Source: Escherichia phage EK010. Taken from it: a stretch of DNA of 64,000 bases. The notes below the pieces were generated by a model that was not told the origin of the DNA, did not search any database, and saw nothing but the letters and a program-made list of their open reading frames with translations. The stretch's first letter is position 1. Each line of letters starts with the position of its first letter. This document shows, in pieces, positions 17,155-42,493 of this stretch. Position numbers and translations under genes: made by a program. The stretch lies in the sequence record NC_070981.1; one strand, written 5' to 3'.

Positions 17155-17781
17155 ATGAGCTTGTTAAGAGATTTTCAACACTATTATTGTGGAACATGGA
17201 TTGCTCAGCGATCACCTGATGGTAAAAACCTCCCTCTATATGTGCTTGATGTTCGTCAGCAAGGTAACTTTGATATCGACGACTACTCACACGACGCTGA
17301 AATGTCTTTAGTGTTTGAGGCGGAACGCTGGACTAAAAACTCTGAAGGTCAGTTTGAACGTCAGATTGTTAGTAATATCCCAGTGTTTGATCACAGCCTC
17401 ATTCTAGAGTCTCCAGATGTAGGATACCTTCAGCATGGTAATAACATGGTGAGCTGGACCCATATCAACCCTGTTCGTCAGCGAGCTAAAGGCTTGATGG
17501 GGAATAAACTTCGTGGTGCTGCACCTTCTCTCGGACGTTCGATTCCGGGTGATTTGGTGTACAACTTGTTTAATCCAGAGTTTGAAGGGTTGGTTACTCG
17601 TTTCATCTATATCAACCCTGTCGATGGAAAAGTGTATTACAAAGGGGCTTACGTTGGAAACGTGCTTCTTGAAGCTGGCTATGGCGACAACGGTCGCCAA
17701 TCTTTAAACCTTCTGGAGAAGTTCAAGCATATTTCTTCAGACCTGTCATCATATAATGTAGAGTTGGTGGAATCATTATGA
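17155..17781 (+). CDS. hypothetical protein (208 aa)
   Basis: Track ORF. Confidence 0.6.
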   Translation: MSLLRDFQHYYCGTWIAQRSPDGKNLPLYVLDVRQQGNFDIDDYSHDAEMSLVFEAERWTKNSEGQFERQIVSNIPVFDHSLILESPDVGYLQHGNNMVSWTHINPVRQRAKGLMGNKLRGAAPSLGRSIPGDLVYNLFNPEFEGLVTRFIYINPVDGKVYYKGAYVGNVLLEAGYGDNGRQSLNLLEKFKHISSDLSSYNVELVESL

Positions 17782-18878
17782 CAACCGTAGCACAAGTTTT
17801 TGGATACCGTAACCCTCGCTTATCTGAACCACATCCAAGTATTGCTTTTCAGTGTGGTGTAGGTATTGAGTTAGAAGTCGAAGGTACAATTGACATTGAC
17901 GCTGATATGTGGGTTTGTACTGAAGATGGCTCTCTTCGTGATGGTTGTGAATTAGTGTGTGCACGACCTTACAACGGTGAAGAATTACTTCGTGCTATTA
18001 ACAATCTGAGTGAAGCAGTACAGGACTCTGGAGCCGAGGGAACTTGGCGCTGCTCCACTCACGTTCATATGGATATGCGGGACGCTGATAGTAATATCCT
18101 TAAGAAAGTTATTCTTGGGTGGACGTTCTATGAAAAGATGATGTTCAAATGTTCTGGATATCATCGTTACCGTAGTAACTTCTGCCCAGCTTTTGCTGTT
18201 GTTCAAGCTCAAGTTATGAATGCTTCATCAGCGTTCAACCGAGATGGGGAAGATTTCTTCCGTACTCTTGTTAATAGCTGGGACAAGTATACCTCCCTTA
18301 ACCTGTTGCCTCTATCTCAGTTTGGTTCTGTTGAGTTTCGTATTTCAGAGCCGAAGTGGAAAAAGAGTCAGCTGCTAAATCTGGTCAATCGCTTCTTGGT
18401 TCTCAAGAAACTGGCTGTTGAATATGCAGATTTAGATAATGAAGCTTATGTTGAGAAGTTGAATGAGCTGCGCTTCGCTCCTATGATTCAACATCTACCT
18501 CTAGACTATACTCCAAGAGATAGCGATCTCACTGAAGGGTATCGTCTTGCCCGTGATATTCTGTTCTGTCGTGAGCAATCTGTAACTTTGGTTGGTCGTG
18601 TTCGTGTGCAACAGACTGGCCCTGATGGTGAAGTCCTTATCAACTTACGTGATATGAATGACTTCTATGGTTTCTTGGGATATGTGCGCGGTAATGCCAA
18701 CACTGTCTATGAAGAGATCATGACCTACTACACTCCTCAGATTGAAAGCACTCGAATCGCAACGGTTCGTGAAATTCGTCACATGTTTGCATTGATGCGT
18801 GAATCAGGTAGCAGTGATAATAACATCACTGATTACATTCCAGACCATCTGGAAATGCAATTAGAACGACTGCTGTAA
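17778..18878 (+). CDS. putative amidoligase (GS/GCS-like, Amidoligase_2-type)
   Basis: GVGIELEVEG and STHVHMD motifs; sits next to a GATase and an AIG2-like gene. Confidence 0.55.
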   Translation: MTTVAQVFGYRNPRLSEPHPSIAFQCGVGIELEVEGTIDIDADMWVCTEDGSLRDGCELVCARPYNGEELLRAINNLSEAVQDSGAEGTWRCSTHVHMDMRDADSNILKKVILGWTFYEKMMFKCSGYHRYRSNFCPAFAVVQAQVMNASSAFNRDGEDFFRTLVNSWDKYTSLNLLPLSQFGSVEFRISEPKWKKSQLLNLVNRFLVLKKLAVEYADLDNEAYVEKLNELRFAPMIQHLPLDYTPRDSDLTEGYRLARDILFCREQSVTLVGRVRVQQTGPDGEVLINLRDMNDFYGFLGYVRGNANTVYEEIMTYYTPQIESTRIATVREIRHMFALMRESGSSDNNITDYIPDHLEMQLERLL

Positions 18879-18955
18879 CACAATGGGCGCTCTGATAAAG
18901 GGCGCATTTAAAGGTTAATTAGATGAAAGGGTTTACCCTTCAGGTGGATTAGAAA

Positions 18956-20989
18956 ATTTGTGGTATCGTATTAGCTGGCGGCAACATGACCTCAACAGAT
19001 TTGGATATTTTCAACCAACTTCTGTATGCTGGTGTTTTCCGGGGACAGCACTCAACTGGTGTGTTTGGTCAGCGTAAAGGTGAAAAGCAAGTCTTCTCTT
19101 ATAAAGAAGCTCTTCCTTCTTATGCTTTTATGCTCCAGACAGAATATACAAATATTACCAAAGGGCTTACGAACTACGTGGTTCCTCCTTCGTGGATTGT
19201 TGGTCACAGCCGACATGCCACTCGTGGGGCTGTCAATGCTCGAAATGCTCACCCATTTACTCACGGGGATATTACTCTGGTTCATAATGGAACCCTGTTA
19301 GATCAAGATCTCCTTCCTGACAGTAAGCGTTTCGAAGTTGATAGTGAAAACATCTGCCACTCAATTAATACCATTGGAGCAGCAGAGACTATCCAAAAAC
19401 TGGATGGTGCATTCACTTTAATCTGGCATGACGCCAAAGATAACACGCTTCACATTATCCGTAATGATGAGCGTCCTTTCCACCTAGCCCGTTGTGGTTT
19501 AGATTGGTTTGGGGCTTCTGAAGAAGCTATGCTTATGTGGATTTTAGAGCGTTCTAAATCCCACAAGAACCGTATCAATGACCACTTCGAGTGTAAAGTG
19601 GGAACTGAGTATATCTTTGATGTGTCTAACAGTCGTATGACTCTGGTTCAAGAGGTGGAGCACAAGCTTCCGGTTTTTACGGTAACGAGTCGCTGGGGCG
19701 GCTATTACTCGAACTCCTCTCTATATCAGAACCAACAGACAAACAAATCAAGCAGCAGCACAAGCGACATTTACGGAAACAAAGACGACAAGCCCGGCGT
19801 GACAAGCGGAGACATTCGTCGTCGTAAAGCGATTGAAGACCAGAACAAACTGGCTGCCGATCGTGGTCTTCCTTATCGTCGTGATGGTCGTGTGGATATT
19901 ATTCCTCACGAGTTCCATGCTTATAACAACACAGATCGTGGTAAGATGGTTGGTTACATCTACGACGATAAAGCCCAAGAGTATGTCGAAGGGGATGTTC
20001 ACAACGTAGCCAAAGATGAATATCTTAAGGCTCTTGAAAACCCAAAGGTAGTATATCGCGGGACGATTGCTTGTATCTCCGAAGTGGACAGTATGATTCG
20101 CCTCGTACTAACTTCAGGGCTGTTTGTTGATGCTACAGATAAGGAGCCTCAAAGCACTACTGCTGATTTTGATGATGATATCCCTTTTGATGCAGAGGAC
20201 TCCTTCATCACTAAAAATGGTGTAGAAGTCACTCGTAAGTTCTGGGAATCTCACTCTCATGGTGATTGTGGTGGTTGTGATAAGCACATTGACTGGAAAG
20301 ATGCTCGTAAGGCTGTGTTTGCTTATCAAGCATACTGGCATCCAGAATGCTTCGAAGCGTTATCTAAAACCTCTGAAGATGAAGAAGATGTGCCTTTGGG
20401 TGTATGTGCTATCTGTGGTGAAGTCAAGACTGATTTCGAGTTTGACAACGAAATGAGTAAACTTCGTGGTGAAGACGTTTGTTATATCTGCTCCAAAGAA
20501 ATCAAAGATAAAGTAAAGAATGTTACTCTATCTGAAGGTTATATTTGGACTAAAGCAGTAGACACAACCAACCCACGTCGTCCTGAAGTAGCTGTTCGTG
20601 TTGATGAACGTATGCTTAGCCGTATGATCGTAATGGTTAGCTCAGCAAAACGTTCAGGGGATATCACACTTGCAGATGTTCCTAATTCGTATTTGGAAAA
20701 ACGTGGTGGTGATACTTATGCCATCTCTGTTTATGGTCCAAAGAATGCCCCAAAGGAGGTACCCGCTGAGAAAGCGGAGACATTTCCAGAAAAGTCAACC
20801 TCTCTCCGAAAAACAGTTGTCAGTTACGATGGACAACGAACAGCTGAGTTTACAAAAGCCCTCTGGACTTCAATTGGGTTTTGTGCAGTCTGTTATAAAC
20901 AAATTCCGTGGCGTGATGCAGAAACTTGCTCACTAAACAAAGAAAATAGAGTGATCTGTAATTCAGATTACTGTAAAGGTAAACACTAA
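18956..20989 (+). CDS. class-II (Ntn) glutamine amidotransferase with Cys-rich C-terminal extension
   Basis: CGIVLAGG...LQ-like RGQHSTGV...HSRHATRG...NAHPF motifs; Cys nucleophile lies 9 codons upstream of the first ATG (18986), implying ATT start at ~18956 after AGGTGG SD. Confidence 0.8.
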   Translation: MCGIVLAGGNMTSTDLDIFNQLLYAGVFRGQHSTGVFGQRKGEKQVFSYKEALPSYAFMLQTEYTNITKGLTNYVVPPSWIVGHSRHATRGAVNARNAHPFTHGDITLVHNGTLLDQDLLPDSKRFEVDSENICHSINTIGAAETIQKLDGAFTLIWHDAKDNTLHIIRNDERPFHLARCGLDWFGASEEAMLMWILERSKSHKNRINDHFECKVGTEYIFDVSNSRMTLVQEVEHKLPVFTVTSRWGGYYSNSSLYQNQQTNKSSSSTSDIYGNKDDKPGVTSGDIRRRKAIEDQNKLAADRGLPYRRDGRVDIIPHEFHAYNNTDRGKMVGYIYDDKAQEYVEGDVHNVAKDEYLKALENPKVVYRGTIACISEVDSMIRLVLTSGLFVDATDKEPQSTTADFDDDIPFDAEDSFITKNGVEVTRKFWESHSHGDCGGCDKHIDWKDARKAVFAYQAYWHPECFEALSKTSEDEEDVPLGVCAICGEVKTDFEFDNEMSKLRGEDVCYICSKEIKDKVKNVTLSEGYIWTKAVDTTNPRRPEVAVRVDERMLSRMIVMVSSAKRSGDITLADVPNSYLEKRGGDTYAISVYGPKNAPKEVPAEKAETFPEKSTSLRKTVVSYDGQRTAEFTKALWTSIGFCAVCYKQIPWRDAETCSLNKENRVICNSDYCKGKH

Positions 20990-21000
20990 GAGGTATAGTT

Positions 21001-21234
21001 ATGGAAGTTCGTAAACTGATGTTGGATAACGTGGTAACTACCCGTCGTATTCCGATGACAAGCACAGGATGTGATAACCTCCGAGCAATTCAGAAGTGGA
21101 TGCAAGAAGGTATTGGGAAGCTGGTTGACTCTCCAGTAGAAATCCCTTTTCCAACCGTCATTAATAACGTGTTGGCTGACTATGTTAAAATGAAGGGGAT
21201 TAAAGTTGAGCCTCATGTCAAGCAAGGGAGCTAA
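21001..21234 (+). CDS. hypothetical protein (77 aa)
   Basis: Track ORF. Confidence 0.5.
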   Translation: MEVRKLMLDNVVTTRRIPMTSTGCDNLRAIQKWMQEGIGKLVDSPVEIPFPTVINNVLADYVKMKGIKVEPHVKQGS

Positions 21235-21436
21235 GCCTCACCTGACAATGCTGGAGTATCAACAACTCCGACTTCAACAACTGGTAACGGAGCAGCGAAA
21301 GCTGTATCCGTTTGCTTTTAACCTAATTGATTCACCAAGCGATGACCAAGAAGACGAGATGTTCGCCAAGTATTGGGAAATCGAAGTTAAAATTCAATCC
21401 TGTCGTAACGAAATTCTTAAACTAAAAGGTATCTAA
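21206..21436 (+). CDS. hypothetical protein (76 aa)
   Basis: Track ORF; start uncertain. Confidence 0.45.
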   Translation: MSLMSSKGAKPHLTMLEYQQLRLQQLVTEQRKLYPFAFNLIDSPSDDQEDEMFAKYWEIEVKIQSCRNEILKLKGI

Positions 21437-21438
21437 AA

Positions 21439-22674
21439 ATGACTACTCGTATCCGTGTTCTTCCGTATGGCCCTTCTGATTCTGTTAACGCTCTGGTAAC
21501 TGCCATTAACGATACTATCCGTGATGAACGTATCAACGCTAACATAATGGGTCTTCTTTCAGAGAACAGTCGCTGGCGTTCTCGTGAGGGTGATGTGGTT
21601 GTGAACTACGGGAACCGTCGCTATCCTGAATCCTTCTTTGGTTCTGCAACTGTCCTTAACCGTACCGCAGCCTTACATATGGCAGCGAACAAACGTCGTG
21701 CTTTCAGCGTGATGGACCAAGCAGGTGTTAAAACTGTTGAGTATACAGATGTTCAAGAGATTGCTCAGGAGTGGTCAAACTCTGGCAACATTGTGTATGA
21801 ACGTCATGAACTGACTGGTCACTCTGGTTCGGGTATCGTTGTTGTTGAGCCTCGTGATTCAATTGGTCAAGCTGAACTGTACACCAAAGGTATTCAAGGT
21901 CCACGTCGTGAATGGCGTGTCCATGTGTTCAAAGGTGTTATCACCTATGTTCAGAAGAAGATTCGTCGTAACGGCTATCGTGAAGACCCTAACTATCGTG
22001 AAGATGTTCGTAACCATCACACTGGTTGGGTTTACTCAAGTTCCTTCACAGACGCTCCAAATGATGCATCTCTGATCAACGCAGTGAAAGCTGTTGAATC
22101 AATGGGTCTGGATTTCGGTGCAGTTGATATCATCACCAAAGGTCAAGAAGCGTGGGTACTGGAAGTTAATACAGCACCGGGCCTGACTGGTACAACTCTG
22201 GATACCTACCGTCATAACATTCTTGAGTTTGTTAAAGCTCAAAACCCTCTCTATACCCCTCAGTATAAAGTGGTTTACCAGACTCCGATTGAAGATGGAG
22301 ACGGTGAGTTGGTGGATGATATTGAAAGTGCTGATGATGAAAACTTTGCACTGGAAGGACAAGTAGCACAGCCGATTGATTCAGTTGATGTGGTTCCTGA
22401 AGAAATGCAACTGGAAGGTCAGATGAATACTCAAACTATTCGTAATGCACCTACTGGCTACACTTTGTCTCGTGGCTACTGGATTGCAAATATCCGTCAT
22501 GTCCACAACAACCTGCAACCGAATGCAATGTCTGCCAATGTCATCCTGTTCTGTGATGGTCGTAACTTCTACCGCAGTGGTTGGAACGTTCCGGTCAATC
22601 CAGTCCAGATTCATAACCCTCGCAAGTTAGAGTCTGTCAATGTTGAAGGTAGCGAAGTAGCAGTAACTCTGTAA
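21439..22674 (+). CDS. ATP-grasp family ligase
   Basis: GHSGSGIVVV, EWRVHVF, WVLEVNTAPGLTG motifs. Confidence 0.7.
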   Translation: MTTRIRVLPYGPSDSVNALVTAINDTIRDERINANIMGLLSENSRWRSREGDVVVNYGNRRYPESFFGSATVLNRTAALHMAANKRRAFSVMDQAGVKTVEYTDVQEIAQEWSNSGNIVYERHELTGHSGSGIVVVEPRDSIGQAELYTKGIQGPRREWRVHVFKGVITYVQKKIRRNGYREDPNYREDVRNHHTGWVYSSSFTDAPNDASLINAVKAVESMGLDFGAVDIITKGQEAWVLEVNTAPGLTGTTLDTYRHNILEFVKAQNPLYTPQYKVVYQTPIEDGDGELVDDIESADDENFALEGQVAQPIDSVDVVPEEMQLEGQMNTQTIRNAPTGYTLSRGYWIANIRHVHNNLQPNAMSANVILFCDGRNFYRSGWNVPVNPVQIHNPRKLESVNVEGSEVAVTL

Positions 22675-22705
22675 TTAAATTAAATTAAACAAAAAGGAAT
22701 TTGTA

Positions 22706-22948
22706 ATGTTGTCTATCGAAGATTTGATCAGCCGTGGAATGACCGAAGAAAAAGAGCCTCTGATTGTAGGCTCTCGTAAAGCTATCAACCAACTCTGTGA
22801 AGAGTTCGGAATCACAAATAAGAGAATGATTGGTAATCAGTTCTCTGCAATCATCACCTTCCTCAAACGAGGTGATAAATATTCAATGGAATGTGCTGAG
22901 CGTATCATCGCAATTGCACAAGCAGATAAGGGAGTAACAAATCTATGA
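22706..22948 (+). CDS. hypothetical protein (80 aa)
   Basis: Track ORF. Confidence 0.5.
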   Translation: MLSIEDLISRGMTEEKEPLIVGSRKAINQLCEEFGITNKRMIGNQFSAIITFLKRGDKYSMECAERIIAIAQADKGVTNL

Positions 22949-23130
22949 ATAAATACACAATCATGTTTCGTACAATGTCAGCAGAAGGAAATATTCAATC
23001 TCTGGACATTCAAGCAGATCGCTTTGAATCACTTGGAACAAGTGTTAACTTCTTCCGAGGTACAGAGCTAGTGGGTACATTCCAATCTGATGTGTTGACT
23101 GGTGTGATCAAACACTTCGAAGTAGAATAA
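22945..23130 (+). CDS. hypothetical protein (61 aa)
   Basis: Track ORF. Confidence 0.45.
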   Translation: MNKYTIMFRTMSAEGNIQSLDIQADRFESLGTSVNFFRGTELVGTFQSDVLTGVIKHFEVE

Positions 23131-23189
23131 TTTGCTTTAGCCTCTTCGAAAGAGGGGGCTAGTTCGAATTTAGCTTACAAAGGAGTTTT

Positions 23190-23726
23190 ATGGAATGGAG
23201 AGAACTTCCCGGATATGAGGGACAGTATTCAATCTCTGATAAAGGGGATATCCGTAGTAATTACCGATGGTATCTTAACCCTAAGACACTAACACGCCAT
23301 AAGAAAGATCGTGAATTGATTATGACACCCAATGTTGGTTCAGCGGGTTATGCTCGAATCAAATTAAGTGATCAGATTTTTCATCCGTATCACAGATTGG
23401 TAGCTATTGTTTGGGTAAGCAATCCAGAAAACAAACCTTTCATCAACCATAAAGATGGAAACAAACTGAACAACAACCCTTCTAATCTAGAATGGGTTAC
23501 TTGTCAGGAAAACAATATACATGCATATCAGACAGGTTTAAACTCTGGTATGCTAAGAGCAGAAACCCTTTCACATGTGTGGAATTTTATATCTCCCGAA
23601 GGGGTTCAAACCGAAATCACTAACCTTTGTAAATATTGTAGAGAGAATGATTTATCTAAGTCCTCTATGATAGCAGTACACAAAGGAACTCAATATCAAC
23701 ATAAGGGTTGGAAAAGAAATGAGTAA
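23190..23726 (+). CDS. HNH homing endonuclease (NUMOD4-like N-terminus)
   Basis: WRELPGYEGQYSISDKGDIRS and NHKDGNKLNNNPSNLEWVTCQENNIHA motifs. Confidence 0.8.
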   Translation: MEWRELPGYEGQYSISDKGDIRSNYRWYLNPKTLTRHKKDRELIMTPNVGSAGYARIKLSDQIFHPYHRLVAIVWVSNPENKPFINHKDGNKLNNNPSNLEWVTCQENNIHAYQTGLNSGMLRAETLSHVWNFISPEGVQTEITNLCKYCRENDLSKSSMIAVHKGTQYQHKGWKRNE

Positions 23727-24153
23727 TGAGAAAGTTTTAGTAGCAACTTACGGCAGCTTGAGAAAAGGTCAACACAACCACGCTATCAATGCTCGTGCAG
23801 GTGGTGTGTCTATCGGTGAAGGGTGGACAGTAAACAACTGTAACCTGTATCAGTATTGCACAGCATACTTCCCAAGTGTATCTCTGGTGCATAACAGCAA
23901 TGGTAAGCCTGTTCGTGTAGAGGTCTTTGAGACAACCCAAGCTGGTCTGGAAGGCCCATATGACGGTCTGGAAGGTCACCGTGGCAATGATAACCCATAC
24001 ACCTTTTACAAACGTACATTGATCCCAGTATTATTGGACAGTGGTGAAACTGTGGAAGCGTGGATTTACCATATTGACGAAGAACAAGATGTTCTTGTTG
24101 AATCTGGTGACTGGACAGCATATCTGGCAGGTGAGAAGGATGACAGTAACTGA
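23719..24153 (+). CDS. gamma-glutamyl cyclotransferase (AIG2/GGCT)-like protein
   Basis: N-terminal VATYGSLRKG motif. Confidence 0.65.
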   Translation: MSNEKVLVATYGSLRKGQHNHAINARAGGVSIGEGWTVNNCNLYQYCTAYFPSVSLVHNSNGKPVRVEVFETTQAGLEGPYDGLEGHRGNDNPYTFYKRTLIPVLLDSGETVEAWIYHIDEEQDVLVESGDWTAYLAGEKDDSN

Positions 24154-26716: not shown

Positions 26717-28177
26717 ATGATTAAGATTCCATTATCTGAATTGAACCTTCAAGAAGGAGAAGCCCTCAGTGTAGGGCTTGACCTGATTCGTAATTTGATC
26801 AGAGATAACGTAGTCCCTGATGGTATCTATCCTGTTATTGCAGGTGGTGCTATCCGTGATACGTTCTTCCAAAATCGAACTCCGAATGATGTTGATATCT
26901 TCCTAGTTCAAGGAGGGCTTCGTTGGAACACTCGCCAGGAAAATAGCCCTGCTAACGTAGGTAATGCTGCACTGTTCCTTGACAACTTCTTATCTTGGAC
27001 AGAAAGTAAGGGGCTTCAGGTTACATCTCGCCTAGTTCAGCCTGTTAACGGGACAACCTATGCTGAAGCGCTTTTCACTTTCCAAGAGATTCTGGAAATT
27101 GAGATTGATCAAGTGAAGATTCAGATGATGATTAATCTCCCTCTGGATATGGATACTTTGAGTCGTCGCTTTCCTATGATCTGTCAAGGGTTTATGACTC
27201 TTGGTGATTTGTATGTGTCAAACGAAGGTTTGTTTGCAATGTCATACACTCGTGACATTCCTGTGGTATCTAGTCGTGAAATGAAGTATGTTCACAAGAA
27301 GTGGCCTGAAGCAACTGTTGCAGTTTATAGCAGTTCTACCGAATATATGCACCTTGCAATGGGAGCTTTCGGTGAGCCAGAAGTTCACCTGATTAGTGAT
27401 TTAGTTGGACCTATGGCTGGTGTAAATTTATATCAGAATCAGCGTCGTCATTATACCCTGAAGATGATGGAAACTATATTAAACATTCCTCAGGAAAGGG
27501 GTCGTAGCTATCTGGACGAGGAAGTTAACCTACAGACAGAATGGTCTAGTGGATTAACCACTATAGGTGCTGAAGCAATTACGCAGCCTTGGACTCCGGG
27601 AACTAACAGACGAGATCTTCAAGCTTTTAATGAAGAAACTTCTCGAACTGTTCGAGGAGGTGTTGTAGGGTATAACGTACAACCTCATGAAAGACCTCGT
27701 GACACTTTTACTGGCAGTTTTGGTAGTGCACACTCTTCTGGAATGGATACTCGTACATGGCATGTCCAAGGAGGAACTGCTCGTCCTATTCCTTCTCCGT
27801 CAATGGATGATTTGCAGCGTTCTCGTCGTTCATGGGAAACAGTAAGCTCTGTTGTTCAGGGTCTACGTGCTAGTGATGTAGAACGTGTAGAAGTTGGCGA
27901 TGTGCTGGAAGATGGATTGCTGGCGATAGCGGCTCGTGAAGCTGCTCGTACTGGCTTTGCATCTTTAGCTAATGATGCTAACGAAGCTCCTCGCCCTCGC
28001 CGTCGTAGCGGTTTAGCTCACTCTAACACTGAACTAGGTTCAGAACTCCGATCTGCTGCTCGTGAGCTATCTGGTGAGCTTCACAACAACCTAGCAGGTG
28101 TTACACTATCTCGTGAAACAGCTCGTAATATGATTAATAATTTGGCATCATCTGTACAAGGAAACAGAAACTCATGA
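26717..28177 (+). CDS. Pol-beta superfamily nucleotidyltransferase (tRNA-NT/poly(A) polymerase head-like) with R/S-rich C-terminal tail
   Basis: IAGGAIRDTFF...DVDIF matches GGxVRD...DxD head motif. Confidence 0.5.
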   Translation: MIKIPLSELNLQEGEALSVGLDLIRNLIRDNVVPDGIYPVIAGGAIRDTFFQNRTPNDVDIFLVQGGLRWNTRQENSPANVGNAALFLDNFLSWTESKGLQVTSRLVQPVNGTTYAEALFTFQEILEIEIDQVKIQMMINLPLDMDTLSRRFPMICQGFMTLGDLYVSNEGLFAMSYTRDIPVVSSREMKYVHKKWPEATVAVYSSSTEYMHLAMGAFGEPEVHLISDLVGPMAGVNLYQNQRRHYTLKMMETILNIPQERGRSYLDEEVNLQTEWSSGLTTIGAEAITQPWTPGTNRRDLQAFNEETSRTVRGGVVGYNVQPHERPRDTFTGSFGSAHSSGMDTRTWHVQGGTARPIPSPSMDDLQRSRRSWETVSSVVQGLRASDVERVEVGDVLEDGLLAIAAREAARTGFASLANDANEAPRPRRRSGLAHSNTELGSELRSAARELSGELHNNLAGVTLSRETARNMINNLASSVQGNRNS

Positions 28178-28707
28178 GTCTTTTAGGTTCTCAAGAATTA
28201 CACAGCGTTATTGATAGTGGCTTTTTAGATGCGGAGCATAAATATGTTAACGCTGCTAGTGTGGATATCCGTATTGGTGATACTATCCTTGTTGAAGAAC
28301 AGGCTGATGGTATTGTTGACATTGATGCTAAAGAAAACCTCAAGTGGAAAGAAGTGAAAATCCCTGAAGATGGCATTGTCATTACTCCGGGACAGTTCTT
28401 CTTAGCTCACTCTATGGAAGAATTTAACCTTCCAGATAACATCTCAAGCCTGTTTGTACTCCGCTCCTCGATGGCTCGTTGTGGTTTGAACCACCTACAT
28501 GCTGGTTGGGCTGATGCAGGGTTTAACAGCAGTAAGCTAACCTTTGAGTTCCATAACGTTACCCACAATCACAGCTTACGAGTTCGTGCTGGGATGCGTG
28601 TTGGTCAAATGGTTATGTTTGAACACTCTCACGCTGGTGATGATTCCTATGCAGTGAAGGGTCGTTACAATGGCAGCAATGGTGTAGTTGCTTCTAAAGG
28701 TGTATAA
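28174..28707 (+). CDS. dcd: dCTP deaminase family protein
   Basis: SSMARCGL...GWADAGF...LTFEFHN motifs of dCTP deaminase/dUTPase fold. Confidence 0.8.
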   Translation: MSLLGSQELHSVIDSGFLDAEHKYVNAASVDIRIGDTILVEEQADGIVDIDAKENLKWKEVKIPEDGIVITPGQFFLAHSMEEFNLPDNISSLFVLRSSMARCGLNHLHAGWADAGFNSSKLTFEFHNVTHNHSLRVRAGMRVGQMVMFEHSHAGDDSYAVKGRYNGSNGVVASKGV

Positions 28708-28923
28708 TTGATGGAGTTTGGAACAATGAAAAGACGTTGGGTAGTTCGTGTTCACTGGAGCAGTGGTGCAGAGTCAATGGGTATTAGAAACACCCGTCAA
28801 GAAGCTCGCGCTCATAAGAAGTTCTTGTTAAGTTGTGAAAGCACAATTAATAAGATCACTATCCACAAAGCTCAAGACTTTAAATCAGGTCGTTTCTATA
28901 TCAGCGGAAAGGTACATTACTAA
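28708..28923 (+). CDS. small protein, paralog family B (WxVxVxW ... TRQEAR ... KVHY)
   Basis: Track ORF; 4 paralogs in window. Confidence 0.5.
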   Translation: MMEFGTMKRRWVVRVHWSSGAESMGIRNTRQEARAHKKFLLSCESTINKITIHKAQDFKSGRFYISGKVHY

Positions 28924-29129
28924 TGGCTAGATTATGGGCAGTTCGCGTTAAATGGGCTAACAAAGACCTTGGTGGTGATTGTATTAAATTATTCGACACT
29001 CGACAAGAAGCTCGTCTTGCTAAGAAAGCTACAAAAGCTTTAGGTCTCGCTGAAAAAGTAGAGATTCATCGTTGGTTTCAAAATGACAATAACAGTGCAG
29101 GATCCTTGACTAGCAAGGTTCATTACTAG
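28923..29129 (+). CDS. small protein, paralog family B
   Basis: Track ORF. Confidence 0.5.
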   Translation: MARLWAVRVKWANKDLGGDCIKLFDTRQEARLAKKATKALGLAEKVEIHRWFQNDNNSAGSLTSKVHY

Positions 29130-29153
29130 TTGGTAGTAGATATGATAACTCTC

Positions 29154-29162
29154 AAATGTATA
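29154..29162 (+). promoter_or_regulatory. AAATGTATA motif (8/9 match to recurring TAATGTATA element)
   Basis: ~38 nt upstream of ATG 29200. Confidence 0.3.
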
Positions 29163-29199
29163 TACAGTATAAGAATATTGTATGAAACAGGAGAGAGTT

Positions 29200-29529
29200 A
29201 TGTTAGATTTGAGTAAAGTGGCCCCGCCATCTGAAGAGATTAGCAAAGCTAAAGTTATGCAGCAGTTCTATCATCGGGATATGCTTGGTCGTTATATCAA
29301 GAATCGTGATGTTGTTGCATGGTCTATTGGAAATCAAGGTTATCTTCTCAAAGTGTTGCAAGTTACTGGCTCAACAGCCAAGCGAGTCAAAGTCTATGAC
29401 CCTGAAATGGGGCGTTCTAAATCAGTAGACCCTCAGAATTGCATTGTTATCACACAACAGGTCATGGATAACATTGCTCGTAATGTAGCTAATTCAACTA
29501 ACTTAGAAGGGGATGCACCTAATGCATAA
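29200..29529 (+). CDS. hypothetical protein
   Basis: ATG with CAGGAGAGAG SD inside track ORF 29182-29529. Confidence 0.5.
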   Translation: MLDLSKVAPPSEEISKAKVMQQFYHRDMLGRYIKNRDVVAWSIGNQGYLLKVLQVTGSTAKRVKVYDPEMGRSKSVDPQNCIVITQQVMDNIARNVANSTNLEGDAPNA

Positions 29530-30088
29530 TAATGTCTTCGACTTACCTGAACTAACACGAGTGGGTTCTAGCAACCCATTCTCTACTACTGACTCTTCTA
29601 TTTCTCGTCTTGAGGGAATGAATAAACTGATTAGTGGTAACAGCTTAGAACACATCTTATGTGATGTGCAAGCTAACCTTGAACTTCTACACATCAAAGC
29701 AAAGAACTACCACTGGAACGTCTCTGGAGCTGGTTTCCAAGGTGTTCATGGTATGTTCGATGAACTAGAAGATTATGCTCGTGAGGCAGGCGACCGAATA
29801 GCAGAGCGTATGCGCTTCCATTGTGTTAAGGTGGATGCCACTGCCAGTAACTATTTAGGTCACGCTTGGTTCCGAGAAGGTAACGCTGATCTCGACATGG
29901 ACGGTATGCTTTCCGACATGTGCATGACTCTTATGTGTATCATTGAGAAGATGGATGAGTTTGATTCAGACTTGTGCACCTATCCAGTGGACCAGAGTAT
30001 GCTTCAAGAAATTAATGAAGGTCTTGGCAAGTTCTGTTACTTCGTCAAGAGCAACATGTCCCACTCCAGTGGTGATGTGTCTTACTAA
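29513..30088 (+). CDS. Dps-like ferritin-fold protein
   Basis: KNYHWNVSGAGFQGVHGMFDELEDYAREAGDRIAERM matches Dps ferroxidase-site region. Confidence 0.7.
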   Translation: MHLMHNNVFDLPELTRVGSSNPFSTTDSSISRLEGMNKLISGNSLEHILCDVQANLELLHIKAKNYHWNVSGAGFQGVHGMFDELEDYAREAGDRIAERMRFHCVKVDATASNYLGHAWFREGNADLDMDGMLSDMCMTLMCIIEKMDEFDSDLCTYPVDQSMLQEINEGLGKFCYFVKSNMSHSSGDVSY

Positions 30089-30152
30089 TCAAACCTCCGC
30101 CCTGTCTCGTTTGTTCAAGAGGTGGGGCGAACTTTTTTATAAGGATGTGAAT

Positions 30153-30332
30153 ATGTTTTCAGCAATCGTATGGTCTGTGTGGGCAATTCTTGTTGGCGGT
30201 ATCGTTTATCTGGCTCAGAAGCAGATGCTTAAAGAGAATCCGAATGATGCTAAAGCCATTAAACATGGCAGCATTGCTCTGGTAGTCTTCTCTGTTGTTA
30301 TTCCTTTCCTTCTTCACCTATGGACTGCATAA
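30153..30332 (+). CDS. small membrane protein (2 TM)
   Basis: ATG with AAGGA SD inside track ORF 29943-30332. Confidence 0.45.
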   Translation: MFSAIVWSVWAILVGGIVYLAQKQMLKENPNDAKAIKHGSIALVVFSVVIPFLLHLWTA

Positions 30333-30508
30333 TGAAATTAAACCTCCCTGAAGAGCTACAAGCACATGCTATTATTGTTAGTGGCTGTGTAATGGGTCTT
30401 GGTCAGACGAAGAAGATTGCCCATGATTTAGCAAAAGGGCAGTATAAATCTTTTATTGTTGTTCCTGCTACCCAACGTCATATCAATCTGTTTATTAACA
30501 AGGAATAG
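30332..30508 (+). CDS. hypothetical small protein
   Basis: TAATG overlap with upstream stop; track ORF 30320-30508. Confidence 0.4.
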   Translation: MKLNLPEELQAHAIIVSGCVMGLGQTKKIAHDLAKGQYKSFIVVPATQRHINLFINKE

Positions 30509-30509
30509 A

Positions 30510-30785
30510 ATGAGTAAAGTGATTAAGTTTTATAGTAACTCCTGTGCTCCGTGTGCAGCTATGGCTCCTGTGTTTAAGAAGGTTGTGGCTGACTATAACG
30601 TTGAAGTTGAAGAGGTAAACATCTCTGAAGGTGATGGTCGAGAGCGGGCCATTGAGTATGGTGTTCGCAGTATCCCAGCCTTCATAGTCCCTGATAATAA
30701 CAGTGGTGCTCACTATAGTTTGTCAGGTATGCAAACTGAATCTAATCTCCGTGCATTTTTAGACACGGCTCTGAAAGGTAAGTAA
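30510..30785 (+). CDS. thioredoxin-like protein (CxxC active site)
   Basis: FYSNSCAPCAAMAPVF; ATG with AAGGAA SD inside track ORF 30456-30785. Confidence 0.7.
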   Translation: MSKVIKFYSNSCAPCAAMAPVFKKVVADYNVEVEEVNISEGDGRERAIEYGVRSIPAFIVPDNNSGAHYSLSGMQTESNLRAFLDTALKGK

Positions 30786-30786
30786 T

Positions 30787-30999
30787 ATGTCCGAATGTAA
30801 ATGGGCTTTACAAGTAAATTGGGGTGGTAATAGAAGTGACATTGCCGCCACTATCTCGTTACAACGAACCCGTGAAGCTGCTCGTACACTTCGTCGTATG
30901 TTTATCAGTGGTGGTCAGAAACCATGTGATGTTAAAATCTACAAAGTTAAACATACCAACGGTGTTATGCAAATTGACACCAACGTAAATTATCGCTGA
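30787..30999 (+). CDS. small protein, paralog family B
   Basis: Track ORF. Confidence 0.5.
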   Translation: MSECKWALQVNWGGNRSDIAATISLQRTREAARTLRRMFISGGQKPCDVKIYKVKHTNGVMQIDTNVNYR

Positions 31000-31006
31000 G
31001 GCAGAT

Positions 31007-31222
31007 ATGGAAAAGAAACCTTGGGTTACTTTTTGGGTAGTTAAGTGGTTTAATTTTGATAGTACAATCCCTAGCTTCTCAACATACTCCACACGGAAAG
31101 AGGCTCGTCGGTTTAAGCGAGCTTTAAAAATTGCTAATACCGGTGCTTCTAAGATTACAATCCAGAAAGGGATTGAAACAGAAAGCGGAAGCAACATGGT
31201 TTATAAAAAGATTCACTATTAA
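31007..31222 (+). CDS. small protein, paralog family B
   Basis: Track ORF. Confidence 0.5.
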   Translation: MEKKPWVTFWVVKWFNFDSTIPSFSTYSTRKEARRFKRALKIANTGASKITIQKGIETESGSNMVYKKIHY

Positions 31223-31229
31223 GGAAGAA

Positions 31230-31697
31230 ATGATACAAGACGACTTGGAATACAACCCTAAGACTGGAGACTTCTTCTGGAAGAACACAAAAGGTCGAAG
31301 GGTTAAAGGAAATCAAGCTGGGTATGTATCTTCTCTAGGTTATCGTTACATTGAGCATGAAGGGAAAAGCTACAGAGCTTGTCGCCTTGCTTGGTTCTTT
31401 GTTCATGGAAAGTTTCCTGAGTTTGAAATTGACCACATCGACCAGAACAAACTTAATGACTCAATTGATAACCTAAGAGATGTGAATCCATCTACTAACT
31501 GCCATAACAGAAGGCAGTACGATGTTGATAACAAGATAGGAAATCTTCCTAGAGGTGTGTATCTTCGTAAGACAGCTTCTGGTGATAAATATCGAGCCAT
31601 TATCGGCGTCAAAGGTAAGAATATATACTTAGGGACTTTTGCTTCTTGTGAAGAGGCAGAAGAAGTTTACAACAAGGAGAAGTTGAAGTATGTCTGA
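31230..31697 (+). CDS. HNH homing endonuclease with AP2-like DNA-binding domain
   Basis: EIDHIDQNKLNDSIDNLRDVNPSTNCHNRR; paralog of 42035 gene. Confidence 0.8.
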   Translation: MIQDDLEYNPKTGDFFWKNTKGRRVKGNQAGYVSSLGYRYIEHEGKSYRACRLAWFFVHGKFPEFEIDHIDQNKLNDSIDNLRDVNPSTNCHNRRQYDVDNKIGNLPRGVYLRKTASGDKYRAIIGVKGKNIYLGTFASCEEAEEVYNKEKLKYV

Positions 31698-32340
31698 TTT
31701 TTTAAAAGCAACACTGGTAGAGCACATGGGTTCCGACAAATCTGTGGTCAATGCAGCAAGGGTTTCCTTTGGTGTGACACGAGATGGTGATCTGAACGAA
31801 CGTGACGAGCGGTTGATTAAATTCTTAGCTCGGGAACGTCATGTGACTCCTTTTCGACACCCTCAAATCACCTTTCGGTGTAAGGCTCCCATTGCAATTG
31901 CTAGACAACTCAATAAACACCAAGTTGGATTCTCATGGAACGAAATGTCCCGGCGGTATAAAGATGGAGCAGTTGAACTCTTCATCCCTAAAGAGATTTT
32001 TGAAAGACCTTCGGACCTCCATGCAGGTGCGGGGAATCTCCTTACCACAGGAGCACAAAACTCTGCACTAGTTCTGATTAATCGGGCATACGAAACAGCT
32101 CTTGAGTCGTATGATGAATTGATTAAGTTTATCGCTCCAGAGCAAGCTCGATTTGTTCTACCTCAAGGTATGATCACGGAGTGGGTGTGGACAGGTTCTT
32201 TATATGGCTGGTCAGAGTTATGTCGTCAGCGACTGTCCGACCATGCTCAGTATGAAGTACGAGTGTTCGCATCAACGGTCGATGAAGAGCTTCGTAAACT
32301 TTTCCCAATCTCATGGGATGCACTACGTGAAGCCCACTAA
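31690..32340 (+). CDS. thyX: ThyX-family (flavin-dependent thymidylate synthase) homolog with divergent active-site motif
   Basis: Aligns along its length with ThyX (AARVSF...TPF.H...KAPI..ARQ...S.NE.S.RY) but canonical RHR is K-H-Q here. Confidence 0.75.
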   Translation: MSDFLKATLVEHMGSDKSVVNAARVSFGVTRDGDLNERDERLIKFLARERHVTPFRHPQITFRCKAPIAIARQLNKHQVGFSWNEMSRRYKDGAVELFIPKEIFERPSDLHAGAGNLLTTGAQNSALVLINRAYETALESYDELIKFIAPEQARFVLPQGMITEWVWTGSLYGWSELCRQRLSDHAQYEVRVFASTVDEELRKLFPISWDALREAH

Positions 32341-33995: not shown

Positions 33996-34319
33996 ATGAT
34001 GACCGATAAGGCGAAACGTGATTATGCACAAGAACGAAGAACTGCAATCGCAAGGGGTGAAACCGGCGTTGGTAGCAAGAGCGGAGATGCTCAGCGCCAC
34101 CGTGCACGTCGCATCGTTGAAAAGCGCGATGGAAAAGCTGCTGTCCGAGGTAAAGATGTTGGACATAAACGATCAATCAAGTCGGGAGGTTCTAATGCGT
34201 CAAGTAACTTACGTGTTGAATCAGTCTCTCGAAATCGCTCGAACGGCGGCAAAAGTGGAGATCGTGCTGGAAAATCAGCAGGAGGAGTCAAATCGAGAAA
34301 AGGCGCTCTAAGTCAATGA
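33996..34319 (+). CDS. highly basic Gly/Arg/Lys-rich protein
   Basis: Track ORF with AAGGAG SD; chosen over overlapping frame 34018-34311. Confidence 0.5.
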   Translation: MMTDKAKRDYAQERRTAIARGETGVGSKSGDAQRHRARRIVEKRDGKAAVRGKDVGHKRSIKSGGSNASSNLRVESVSRNRSNGGKSGDRAGKSAGGVKSRKGALSQ

Positions 34320-34810
34320 TTCCGATTTCCGACTACTTGTCATACGACCCGGATACTGGTTTATTGATTTTTACCGAATCTAGCTCTAAAGGTAAGAAAT
34401 GGAATAAATCACATCCGGGAAAAGTGGCAGGGGCTGTTGATGAAAAAGGATATATCAGAGTTTACTTTGAAGGGAGGAGATGGAAAGCTCACAGACTTAT
34501 AGCTTCTGTGCTCATACCTAACCCTGAAAATAAACCACAAATTAACCACATCAATGGTAACAAAAGTGATAATAGGTTAGAGAACCTAGAGTGGGTCACT
34601 GGTCATGAAAATATACAACATGCTTTTTCAACAGGTCTTAATGTTGGTAAAGAGAGGGATGCTAATGGAATGACTAAAATCAACACATTGGATGTGGAGA
34701 AGATCAAGAGTTTATATGTTAAAGGCTCTACCACTCACGGAACAAGAGCACTAGGTAAGATGTTTGGCGTAAGTCACACAGCTATCCGACATGCTTTAAG
34801 CTCAAGTTAA
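34316..34810 (+). CDS. HNH homing endonuclease
   Basis: INHINGNKSDNRLENLEWVTGHENIQHA. Confidence 0.8.
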   Translation: MIPISDYLSYDPDTGLLIFTESSSKGKKWNKSHPGKVAGAVDEKGYIRVYFEGRRWKAHRLIASVLIPNPENKPQINHINGNKSDNRLENLEWVTGHENIQHAFSTGLNVGKERDANGMTKINTLDVEKIKSLYVKGSTTHGTRALGKMFGVSHTAIRHALSSS

Positions 34811-41669: not shown

Positions 41670-42011
41670 ATGGAAAAGCTTCAAAACAATATAGGCTTTC
41701 TTATTTTCACAGCTCTTATTTTCTTTGGTGGAATGAAGTTTGAGCAATATCGAAACGATAGCAGTGCTCTTGACCAAGAGAAGAAACAACAAGAGATAGA
41801 GATTGAGAGAGCCAAGGCTGCTGATGAAGTAGCTCAGAAAGTTCTTACCGGTTTAACTAACTGGAAGAAGAACACGGAAACTATTTACAAAGAGATGCAT
41901 TATGAAAAGACTAAGCCAGTTTTTTACAATGTGTGTGCTAGCGATGAGTATGTCTCTTTATTTAACCAAAGACAGGAAGAAGCTAAGAGGGTTTTAAAAT
42001 CGAAGGAATAG
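41670..42011 (+). CDS. membrane protein with N-terminal TM helix
   Basis: ATG inside track ORF 41646-42011. Confidence 0.5.
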   Translation: MEKLQNNIGFLIFTALIFFGGMKFEQYRNDSSALDQEKKQQEIEIERAKAADEVAQKVLTGLTNWKKNTETIYKEMHYEKTKPVFYNVCASDEYVSLFNQRQEEAKRVLKSKE

Positions 42012-42034
42012 AAGAGTTTTTATCCTATGATGAA

Positions 42035-42493
42035 ATGTCAGGAAAACTAACGTGGAGAAGCTCTGAAAAGAAGAGCAATCAATGGAACTCTAGGTTTGCT
42101 GGAAAAGAGGCTGGCTGTTTGATAGATGCTGGATACATTGTTGTGAGGTTTAATGGGAAAGCACATAAAGCTCACAGAGTGGCTTGGTATTTAAAAACAG
42201 GAGAAATCCCTGATACTGATATCGACCACAAAGATCAGATTAAATCTAACAATTCTTGGACCAACCTGAGAAAAGCAACCAATGCGCAGAATCAGATGAA
42301 TACATCTGCTCAGAAGAATTCTATAACAGGTATAAAAGGTGTCGGATATAGAAAGGATGTTAACAAGTGGACTGCTCGAATAGGGTTTGAGGATAAAGTT
42401 ATTTGGCTTGGTTTTCATGATACACTGGAAGGAGCTAAGTGTGCATATAAAGAAAAAGCTATTGAGTTGTACGGGGATTTTGCTAGCTTTTAG
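42035..42493 (+). CDS. HNH homing endonuclease with AP2-like domain
   Basis: IDHKDQIKSNNSWTNLRKATNAQNQMN; paralog of 31230 gene. Confidence 0.75.
   Translation: MSGKLTWRSSEKKSNQWNSRFAGKEAGCLIDAGYIVVRFNGKAHKAHRVAWYLKTGEIPDTDIDHKDQIKSNNSWTNLRKATNAQNQMNTSAQKNSITGIKGVGYRKDVNKWTARIGFEDKVIWLGFHDTLEGAKCAYKEKAIELYGDFASF

Follow-up and report, generated by a model that had tools for sequence, protein, structure and literature searches.

What are the four short open reading frames (ORFs) that stand in two pairs among the replication and nucleotide-metabolism genes of Escherichia phage EK010, and do they have one origin and one kind of function? We analysed a stretch of 64,000 nucleotides (nt) of this phage (NC_070981.1; hereafter the window), in which an earlier reading of the sequence, the original prediction, had taken four genes of about 70 codons for a paralog family without a recognisable fold. 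Bases 28000-32000 of the window matched Escherichia phage E20-1 (OP293233.1; Gordonclarkvirinae, recorded as Kuravirus) at 100% identity, the plus strand of the window being the minus strand of OP293233.1, and in the comparisons below the E20-1 copies or array are the four window genes. ECBP2, Bas87, SU7, and other phages were 92-95% identical over the same bases, and the phage is of the Kuravirus-like prolate podophage type. Sequence comparison shows that the four genes belong to one family of small proteins, PHROG 4939, as paralogs that diverged long ago. What the proteins do is argued below with more caution; small accessory proteins that bind nucleic acid are our tentative first choice. 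The genes, all on the plus strand, occupy two sites, slot A behind the dCTP deaminase gene and slot B between the thioredoxin and ThyX genes:

28726-28923, plus strand: ORF1, 65 amino acids (aa), isoelectric point (pI) 10.75; first gene of slot A, directly 3' of the dCTP deaminase gene; phiEco32 gp70 type
28923-29129, plus strand: ORF2, 68 aa, pI 9.9; second gene of slot A; phiEco32 gp69 type
30787-30999, plus strand: ORF3, 70 aa, pI 10.1; first gene of slot B, 1 nt past the thioredoxin stop
31007-31222, plus strand: ORF4, 71 aa, pI 10.2; slot-B (ThyX-adjacent) type; GAGG 5 nt before the ATG

The common origin is carried by two profiles. The PHROG 4939 profile (67 positions) matched ORF1, ORF2, ORF3, and ORF4 with E values of 3.6e-26, 2.8e-19, 1.8e-3, and 8.1e-23 over profile positions 1-67, 1-67, 4-67, and 2-67, respectively, ORF3 being the weakest. 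A second, independent profile was built from other phages only, leaving out E20-1 and Bas87 sequences, and was searched against the 770 six-frame ORFs of the window. It gave exactly four window matches (E = 9e-23, 7e-19, 1e-17, and 8e-8, the last for ORF3), the next-best of the 770 ORFs showed E 0.04, and no fifth family copy was found within the window. ORF3 was also recovered at 2e-8 by a profile built without it. Pairwise BLASTP linked ORF1, ORF2, and ORF4 at 1e-6 to 1e-4, whereas ORF3 was detectable by profile only. Identity among the four copies was 21-36%, with ORF3 the most divergent (21-24% to the other three), and the aligned proteins share the M1, W, V, W, T-R, A-R, I, and Y columns. 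As all four were recovered by both the PHROG matches and the independent profile, they are true paralogs, and the coordinates bear out their arrangement as two tandem pairs (ORF1 with ORF2 and ORF3 with ORF4).

Of the four proteins, ORF1 and ORF2 alone show all three signature motifs exactly as first described. The WxVxVxW strand is present in ORF1 and ORF2, but ORF3 reads WALQVNW and ORF4 FWVVKW. The central T-R-(Q/K)-E-A-R motif holds in ORF1, ORF2, and ORF4 and is replaced by TREAAR in ORF3; likewise, the C-terminal K-(V/I)-H-Y of ORF1, ORF2, and ORF4 gives way to an NVNYR ending in ORF3. All four proteins keep the W and the T-R-x-x-A-R. Over 29 family sequences W5, T23, R24, A27, and R28 were invariant and K31 and the C-terminal Tyr nearly invariant. 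Tyr was exactly the last residue in 52 of the 57 distinct members; ORF1, ORF2, and ORF4 end in Tyr, and ORF3 ends in Tyr-Arg.

The coordinates given originally for ORF2, ORF3, and ORF4 were reproduced, but the start of ORF1 needs correction from TTG 28708, which sits right behind the dCTP deaminase stop, to ATG 28726. The latter is the start annotated in GenBank (E20-1, Bas87) and in orthologues, and it has a suitably placed signal upstream:

28713-28716, plus strand: ribosome-binding site GGAG, 9 nt 5' of ATG 28726

The GGAG and the annotation in E20-1 and Bas87 make ATG 28726 the most likely true start. A good ribosome-binding site was seen upstream of each of the four genes. The stop of ORF1 and the start of ORF2 overlap as TAATG at 28921-28925, and ORF3 and ORF4 are separated by a gap of 7 nt that contains GAGG. 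Overlaps of 1 nt between stop and start also join all copies in phiEco32 (gp71-gp70-gp69), in Paul, and in a metagenomic contig that holds four consecutive copies. Their recurrence points to translational coupling of the slot-A copies, in the window of ORF2 to ORF1.

Is the family confined to this genome? A word-indexed search matched 11 proteins, and an exhaustive profile search of 1.84 billion representatives returned only 20 clusters, all of stand-alone proteins of 65-78 aa. The ORF1 (gp70) type was found in 97 phage records, all from Escherichia, Shigella, or unnamed "phage"; this equals the number of records matching the DNA of the region, so that the type is present in 97/97 of the related records sharing it. 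The ORF4 type occurred in 39 phage records. The ORF3 type was restricted to E20-1 among 50,697 phage records, and an identical protein is named from phage EK010. Clustering of family members placed ORF1 with phiEco32 gp70, ORF2 with gp69, ORF4 with the slot-B group, and ORF3, a rare, divergent extra copy, alone. phiEco32 gp69, gp70, and gp71 and their orthologues in SU10, ECBP2, KBNP1711, EP335, and Paul are PHROG 4939 members by profile, like ORF1-4. The phiEco32 array resembles that of E20-1 in its slot after the dCTP deaminase gene and in its 1-nt overlaps; unlike phiEco32, whose slot B is empty, E20-1 lacks the gp71 type and carries two extra copies in slot B. Outside these phages, two copies occur in the Grimontviridae phage PKM.Hi.22.6 of Salmonella, one immediately before thyX and closest to the slot-B type, the other elsewhere; none stands behind the dCTP deaminase gene. 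Conservation extends, in sum, well past this genome, over 97 Kuravirus-like records, a Salmonella phage of another family, and metagenomic relatives; as a whole, the family keeps to phages of the phiEco32-like prolate podophage type.

The reference phages and metagenomic relatives are syntenic with the window. Their family arrays lie at two fixed slots, slot A after dCTP deaminase with 2-4 copies and slot B between thioredoxin and ThyX with 0-2, and the copies per genome vary from 2 to 5:

E20-1 and Bas87: two copies in slot A, two in slot B
SU7: two in slot A, none in slot B
L006: two in slot A, one in slot B
phiEco32 and EP335: three in slot A, none in slot B
Paul and KBNP1711: three in slot A, one in slot B
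L004/L005: three in slot A, none in slot B
L007: four in slot A, one in slot B
L003 (a 1.4-kb contig): four in slot A, slot B outside the contig

The genes and the spacer that border the two slots in the window are as follows:

28174-28707, plus strand: dCTP deaminase gene (Pfam DCD, E 1.2e-34); conserved upstream boundary of slot A
29130-29199, plus strand: conserved spacer after slot A, 70 bp; 90% mean column identity over 8 phages
30510-30785, plus strand: thioredoxin gene (Pfam Thioredoxin, E 1.2e-12); upstream boundary of slot B
31230-31697, plus strand: HNH homing-endonuclease gene (Pfam HNH_3, E 7.5e-10); between slot B and thyX
31690-32340, plus strand: ThyX thymidylate synthase gene (Pfam Thy1, E 6.8e-44); downstream boundary of slot B

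A 109-aa gene, a Dps/ferritin-like gene, two genes of about 58 aa, and the thioredoxin gene lie between the two pairs. The pairs therefore do flank the Dps and thioredoxin genes, as had been described, but the dCTP deaminase gene stands immediately upstream of the first pair and is not flanked. The proposed tie to replication and nucleotide-metabolism genes is real as synteny. Two labels in OP293233.1 probably are misannotations, judging from Pfam: ORF66 (29513-30088), annotated 'integrase', matched Ferritin (5e-8), and ORF63 (30510-30785), annotated 'holin', matched Thioredoxin (1e-12).

What could such proteins do? All four are 65-71 aa long with pI values of 9.9-10.8, net charges of +5.7 to +9.8, and 12-14 Lys plus Arg against 4-7 Asp plus Glu. 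Structure models were made for ORF1 and ORF3. The AlphaFold2 model of ORF1 (predicted local distance difference test, pLDDT, 83) showed strands at residues 4-11 and 16-21, a helix at 24-37, strands at 41-52 and 56-59, and then a low-confidence tail; that of ORF3, the most divergent copy, showed the same β-β-α-β-β order with a pLDDT of 79. The C-terminal block had a pLDDT of 53-61 in the two models. The predicted fold for ORF1 and ORF3 is accordingly a β-hairpin, one helix, and a second β-hairpin. W5, V7, V9, W11, I44, and I46 would point toward the helix, R8, H/K10, R21, K43, and H47 (ORF1) would sit on the open side of the four-stranded sheet, and R24, R28, and K31 would form a stripe down one helix flank.

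On these grounds we tentatively favour small nucleic-acid-binding accessory proteins that may form hetero-oligomers, a reading to which we give somewhat less than an even chance and which draws on the charge, the invariant Arg and Lys residues on two surfaces, the C-terminal Tyr tail, the coupled translation, the fixed position among DNA-metabolism genes, and the combination of a core gp70 type with accessory copies. In members of two phage families, and in relatives from metagenomes, family genes adjoin genes of DNA metabolism. The conserved basic and His residues on the open sheet face could contact the DNA or RNA backbone, and the helix stripe T-R-x-x-A-R-x-x-K could offer a second positive surface for such contacts. 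The flexible tail with its near-invariant terminal Tyr might attach to a partner or to a further subunit. With coupled translation, adjacent copies would be made in roughly equimolar amounts and might form hetero-oligomers, and the variable loops would lend each paralog its own specificity. Small chromatin and nucleoid proteins such as Sso7d/Cren7 and HU are alike in their small size, high pI, and basic sheet or arm: they are proteins of 7-10 kDa with a pI near 10 and an exposed β-sheet or arm rich in Lys/Arg. No sequence or fold match to HU/IHF, Sso7d/Cren7, Alba, or ribbon-helix-helix proteins was found.

Several observations weigh against nucleic-acid binding. The facing of the residues was derived from strand and helix periodicity and not from coordinates. 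Some proteins whose partners are acidic proteins also have a high positive charge. phiEco32, EP335, and SU7 have no copy in slot B, and the variable copy number together with this loss of a slot indicates that no single copy is essential; dispensable copies would fit accessory or counter-defence genes at least as well. Shotgun proteomics of SU10 showed no family member among 34 detected proteins, and the neighbouring products of coding sequences (CDS) 65, 67, and 68 were detected. This non-detection is weak evidence, because K/R-rich proteins of 7-8 kDa yield few usable tryptic peptides.

The same proteomic result, together with the dispensability of single copies in some phages, would also be expected if the genes were unexpressed or functionless relics of duplication. 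The ratio of nonsynonymous to synonymous substitution rates (Nei-Gojobori dN/dS) was 0.13-0.54 in each of the 21 orthologue pairs, those with saturated synonymous sites among them; on this account the genes are protein-coding and under purifying selection, which holds for all subgroups and speaks against relics. Reading frames, ribosome-binding sites, and start/stop overlaps also stayed intact in phages with saturated synonymous sites, and residues and fold are conserved at 21-36% identity. Decayed duplicates are therefore a very improbable explanation.

The history of the array bears on the main rival of nucleic-acid binding. The gp69-type genes of phiEco32 and KBNP1711 (L010/L012) were near identical (synonymous divergence, dS, 0.026), whereas the neighbouring gp70 and gp71 types showed dS >2. 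This contrast indicates recombination inside the slot-A array, which by these values is mosaic. The DNA of ORF1 and ORF2 had only a 31-nt and a 22-nt segment in common (77-82% identity), which indicates that the duplications are old. We also considered a recent tandem amplification through the adjacent HNH endonuclease, whose gene follows ORF4 by 7 nt and overlaps the thyX start and has no counterpart at that place in phiEco32, Paul, and KBNP1711. This was rejected on the 21-36% identity, on the two short DNA segments, and on the grouping of the copies with orthologues of other genera. The HNH gene itself is one of four paralogous homing-endonuclease genes in the replication block (23190-23726, 31230-31697, 34220-34807, and 41987-42490; BLASTP 1e-6 to 3e-19). 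All-versus-all BLASTP of the window gave further paralogous ORF pairs, several of them in tandem (9728-9913/9917-10087, 34852-35115/35093-35374, 38967-39185/39663-39920, 7945-8187/13130-13387, and 52656-53630/53634-54692), and so many pairs indicate that small-gene duplication is common in this genome.

In some phages, unrelated small genes were observed as the first gene of slot A: L007 9798-10004 and L014 5586-5792, and L012 5583-5774 and L001 3713-3904. They encode an acidic helical protein matching PF26888 (Phage_T4_Y13I) and a 63-aa protein with a hydrophobic segment (a small membrane ORF). As candidates for family membership they were rejected, since their sequences are unrelated and the family profile gave no match at those loci. 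Because of these insertions, slot A, as read from the sequences, behaves as an insertion hot spot.

When would the two pairs be expressed? The 70-bp spacer behind slot A was conserved also in relatives whose gp70- and gp71-type genes are synonymously saturated. It includes CTCTCAAATGTATATA, and the AAATGTATA at 29154-29162 within it differs by one mismatch from TAATGTATA, the core of the phiEco32 promoters used by the phage sigma factor gp36 (PMC4331800). A gp36-dependent promoter has been mapped upstream of phiEco32 gene 68, the gene after this spacer (PMC8948821), and the SU7 record has a promoter annotated at the equivalent place. The spacer divides slot A from the downstream transcription unit that holds slot B. 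In the SU10 listing, CDS 65, 67, and 68 are middle products and CDS 74 and above are early. Judged by the gene order shared with phiEco32 and SU10, slot A, with ORF1 and ORF2, would be the 3' end of an early, host sigma-70-dependent unit, and slot B (ORF3 and ORF4) would belong to a middle unit starting at the conserved gene-68 promoter.

Host-protein binding, for takeover or counter-defence, is the main rival to a nucleic-acid role. Each paralog would then bind its own host factor, probably an acidic one, and block or divert it, and gain, loss, and recombination would have made the array into an arsenal. Many of the data above are consistent with this: the copy number of 2 to 5 per genome with whole slots lost, the rare and nearly strain-specific ORF3, the mosaic array (gp69 dS 0.026 versus gp70 and gp71 dS >2), the unrelated small genes interleaved in slot A, and the likely early expression of slot A. 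The proposal also fits a puzzle of the Gordonclarkvirinae, whose reported resistance to restriction-modification systems is remarkable and has neither a known modification pathway nor a known inhibitor behind it (PMC11990801). However, the gp70 type in 97/97 records and the conserved order of types look more like a core function, and dN/dS stayed below 1 in all pairs, with no gene-wide sign of diversification. That all paralogs share invariant Arg and Lys residues points to one common ligand and not to many targets. We consider an arsenal of host-protein binders a serious but, on balance, unlikely explanation.

The Gordonclarkvirinae puzzle allows a bolder extension of nucleic-acid binding. 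The family may itself underlie the restriction resistance, the strongly basic, translationally coupled early and middle mini-proteins, with a fold absent from solved structures, coating or occluding phage DNA, or sequestering a nucleotide signal, as hetero-oligomers; this is a long shot. A 486-aa gene, labelled 'nucleotidyltransferase' in related records and without a Pfam match, lies upstream of the dCTP deaminase gene (26717-28177), and its metagenomic homologue in L006 had a weak match to PF26128 (Gad2, anti-Gabija). The BASEL paper proposed that the gene of this type and the dCTP deaminase may underlie DNA modification (PMC11990801). Even more speculative is the thought that three enzymes of the phage, a RimK-like ATP-grasp ligase, an amidotransferase, and a gamma-glutamyl cyclotransferase, could use the free C-terminal Tyr as a substrate. 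Genes for a 366-aa ORF, a 667-aa glutamine amidotransferase-like protein, a 411-aa RimK-like ATP-grasp protein, and a gamma-glutamyl cyclotransferase-like protein lie in the early region (17778-24153), and the phages that carry relatives of the ATP-grasp gene infect Pseudomonas, Vibrio, Aeromonas, Proteus, and other hosts. The RimK-like ATP-grasp gene was found in 310 phage records, far more than the family, so co-occurrence gives no specific support for such a link.

Does the position of the genes instead mean that the proteins serve their neighbours? By analogy, they could be regulatory or assembly subunits of dCTP deaminase, ThyX, thioredoxin, or DNA polymerase, with the C-terminal Tyr tail docking on the enzyme. 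In phage T7, the last residue of gp2.5 and of gp4 is aromatic and makes contact with the polymerase-thioredoxin complex. The family resembles them in its conserved terminal aromatic residue on a flexible tail and in having its genes among T7-like replication genes, a phage thioredoxin gene included. A member adjoins thyX in both the Gordonclarkvirinae and the Grimontviridae phage PKM.Hi.22.6, slot A always lies behind dCTP deaminase in Kuravirus-like phages, and the near-invariant Tyr sits on a low-confidence tail, as docking would lead one to expect. On the other hand, large proteins carry the T7 tails, which are strongly acidic, whereas the family has neutral to basic tails (for example SGKVHY) on proteins of about 70 aa. 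The adjacency may be inherited synteny, as all carriers are related phages; PKM.Hi.22.6 has no member behind its dCTP deaminase gene; phiEco32, EP335, and SU7 have thyX with no copy in slot B; and several paralogs per enzyme would be unusual. What favours a Dcd or ThyX subunit role is synteny only, and we regard such subunits as improbable.

Comparison with known families left the assignment where the original prediction had put it, with no known fold. No consistent match came from scanning the four proteins and 29 members of the family with Pfam and NCBIfam. Against the PDB, the best E was 0.42 for a sequence search with the family profile and 0.41 for Foldseek. Foldseek with the model against BFVD found uncharacterised phage proteins only, among them those of Salmonella phage SE131, Cronobacter phages GAP52 and 009, and Aeromonas phage LAh_8. 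A literature search found no paper mentioning gp69-71 or the family, and the work on the sRNA svsR in Kuravirus infection does not bear on them.

The closest pattern was that of DUF2188 (PF09954), a family of small bacterial and phage proteins of similar size with a W-x-V strand, a T-x-x-EA helix, and an I-H strand; unlike DUF2188, the present family has the basic stripe and the terminal Tyr. The PF09954 model gave no match to the 29 members at E up to 10, and a consensus-like DUF2188 sequence used as a control scored 9e-32. In hhalign the W-x-V and T-x-x-EA segments were in register, with a probability of 2-3%; against a bona fide DUF2188 alignment the value was 2.2% (P = 0.022, 28 columns) at low power, the number of effective sequences (Neff) in the alignment being 1.8. 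With no PF09954 match and this hhalign probability, DUF2188 membership was rejected as demonstrable.

Inhibition of uracil-DNA glycosylase by acidic DNA mimicry, as in phi29 p56 and PBS2 Ugi, was ruled out because the proteins are strongly basic; Foldseek matches to p56 had E 1.7-1.9 and template modelling (TM) scores of 0.34-0.35. Catalysis was weighed as well, in the form of miniature RelE/YoeB-like ribonucleases or another enzyme using the conserved Arg and the C-terminal Tyr. E. coli YoeB is a small basic protein that starts with MKLIW... and finishes in ...HY-COOH, its terminal Tyr being catalytic, and the invariant Arg and terminal Tyr of the family give it a superficial likeness to that protein. 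However, the β-β-α-β-β order predicted here differs from the two N-terminal helices followed by a sheet in RelE/YoeB, and the Pfam scans gave no match. The penultimate His, H47, and E26 are variable, only Arg and Tyr being conserved, so the family lacks the conserved catalytic set of the RelE/YoeB/ParE superfamily as well as its topology. Of the roles weighed, an enzyme of this kind seems to us the least probable, with hardly any chance of being right.

The base composition around the locus is uniform. GC content was even at 41-44%, and a positive GC skew ran steadily across the co-directional gene block. The cumulative GC skew peaked near 46 kb, where the sign of the skew flips, and this point is probably the border between the plus-strand replication and metabolism block and the minus-strand genes.

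Part of this was already on record, as a PHROG 4939 entry, as BFVD models, and as "hypothetical protein" in about 100 genomes. What is new is the account of the family as multi-copy, its defined subtypes lying in two fixed slots, along with a predicted fold and a set of invariant residues. The finding is modest but real, and it offers a cheap and concrete target in a poorly studied, abundant, and therapeutically used group of phages. The proteins are tiny and easy to purify, and relatives that infect K-12 exist (BASEL Bas86-94). A solved structure would probably add a new small α+β family.

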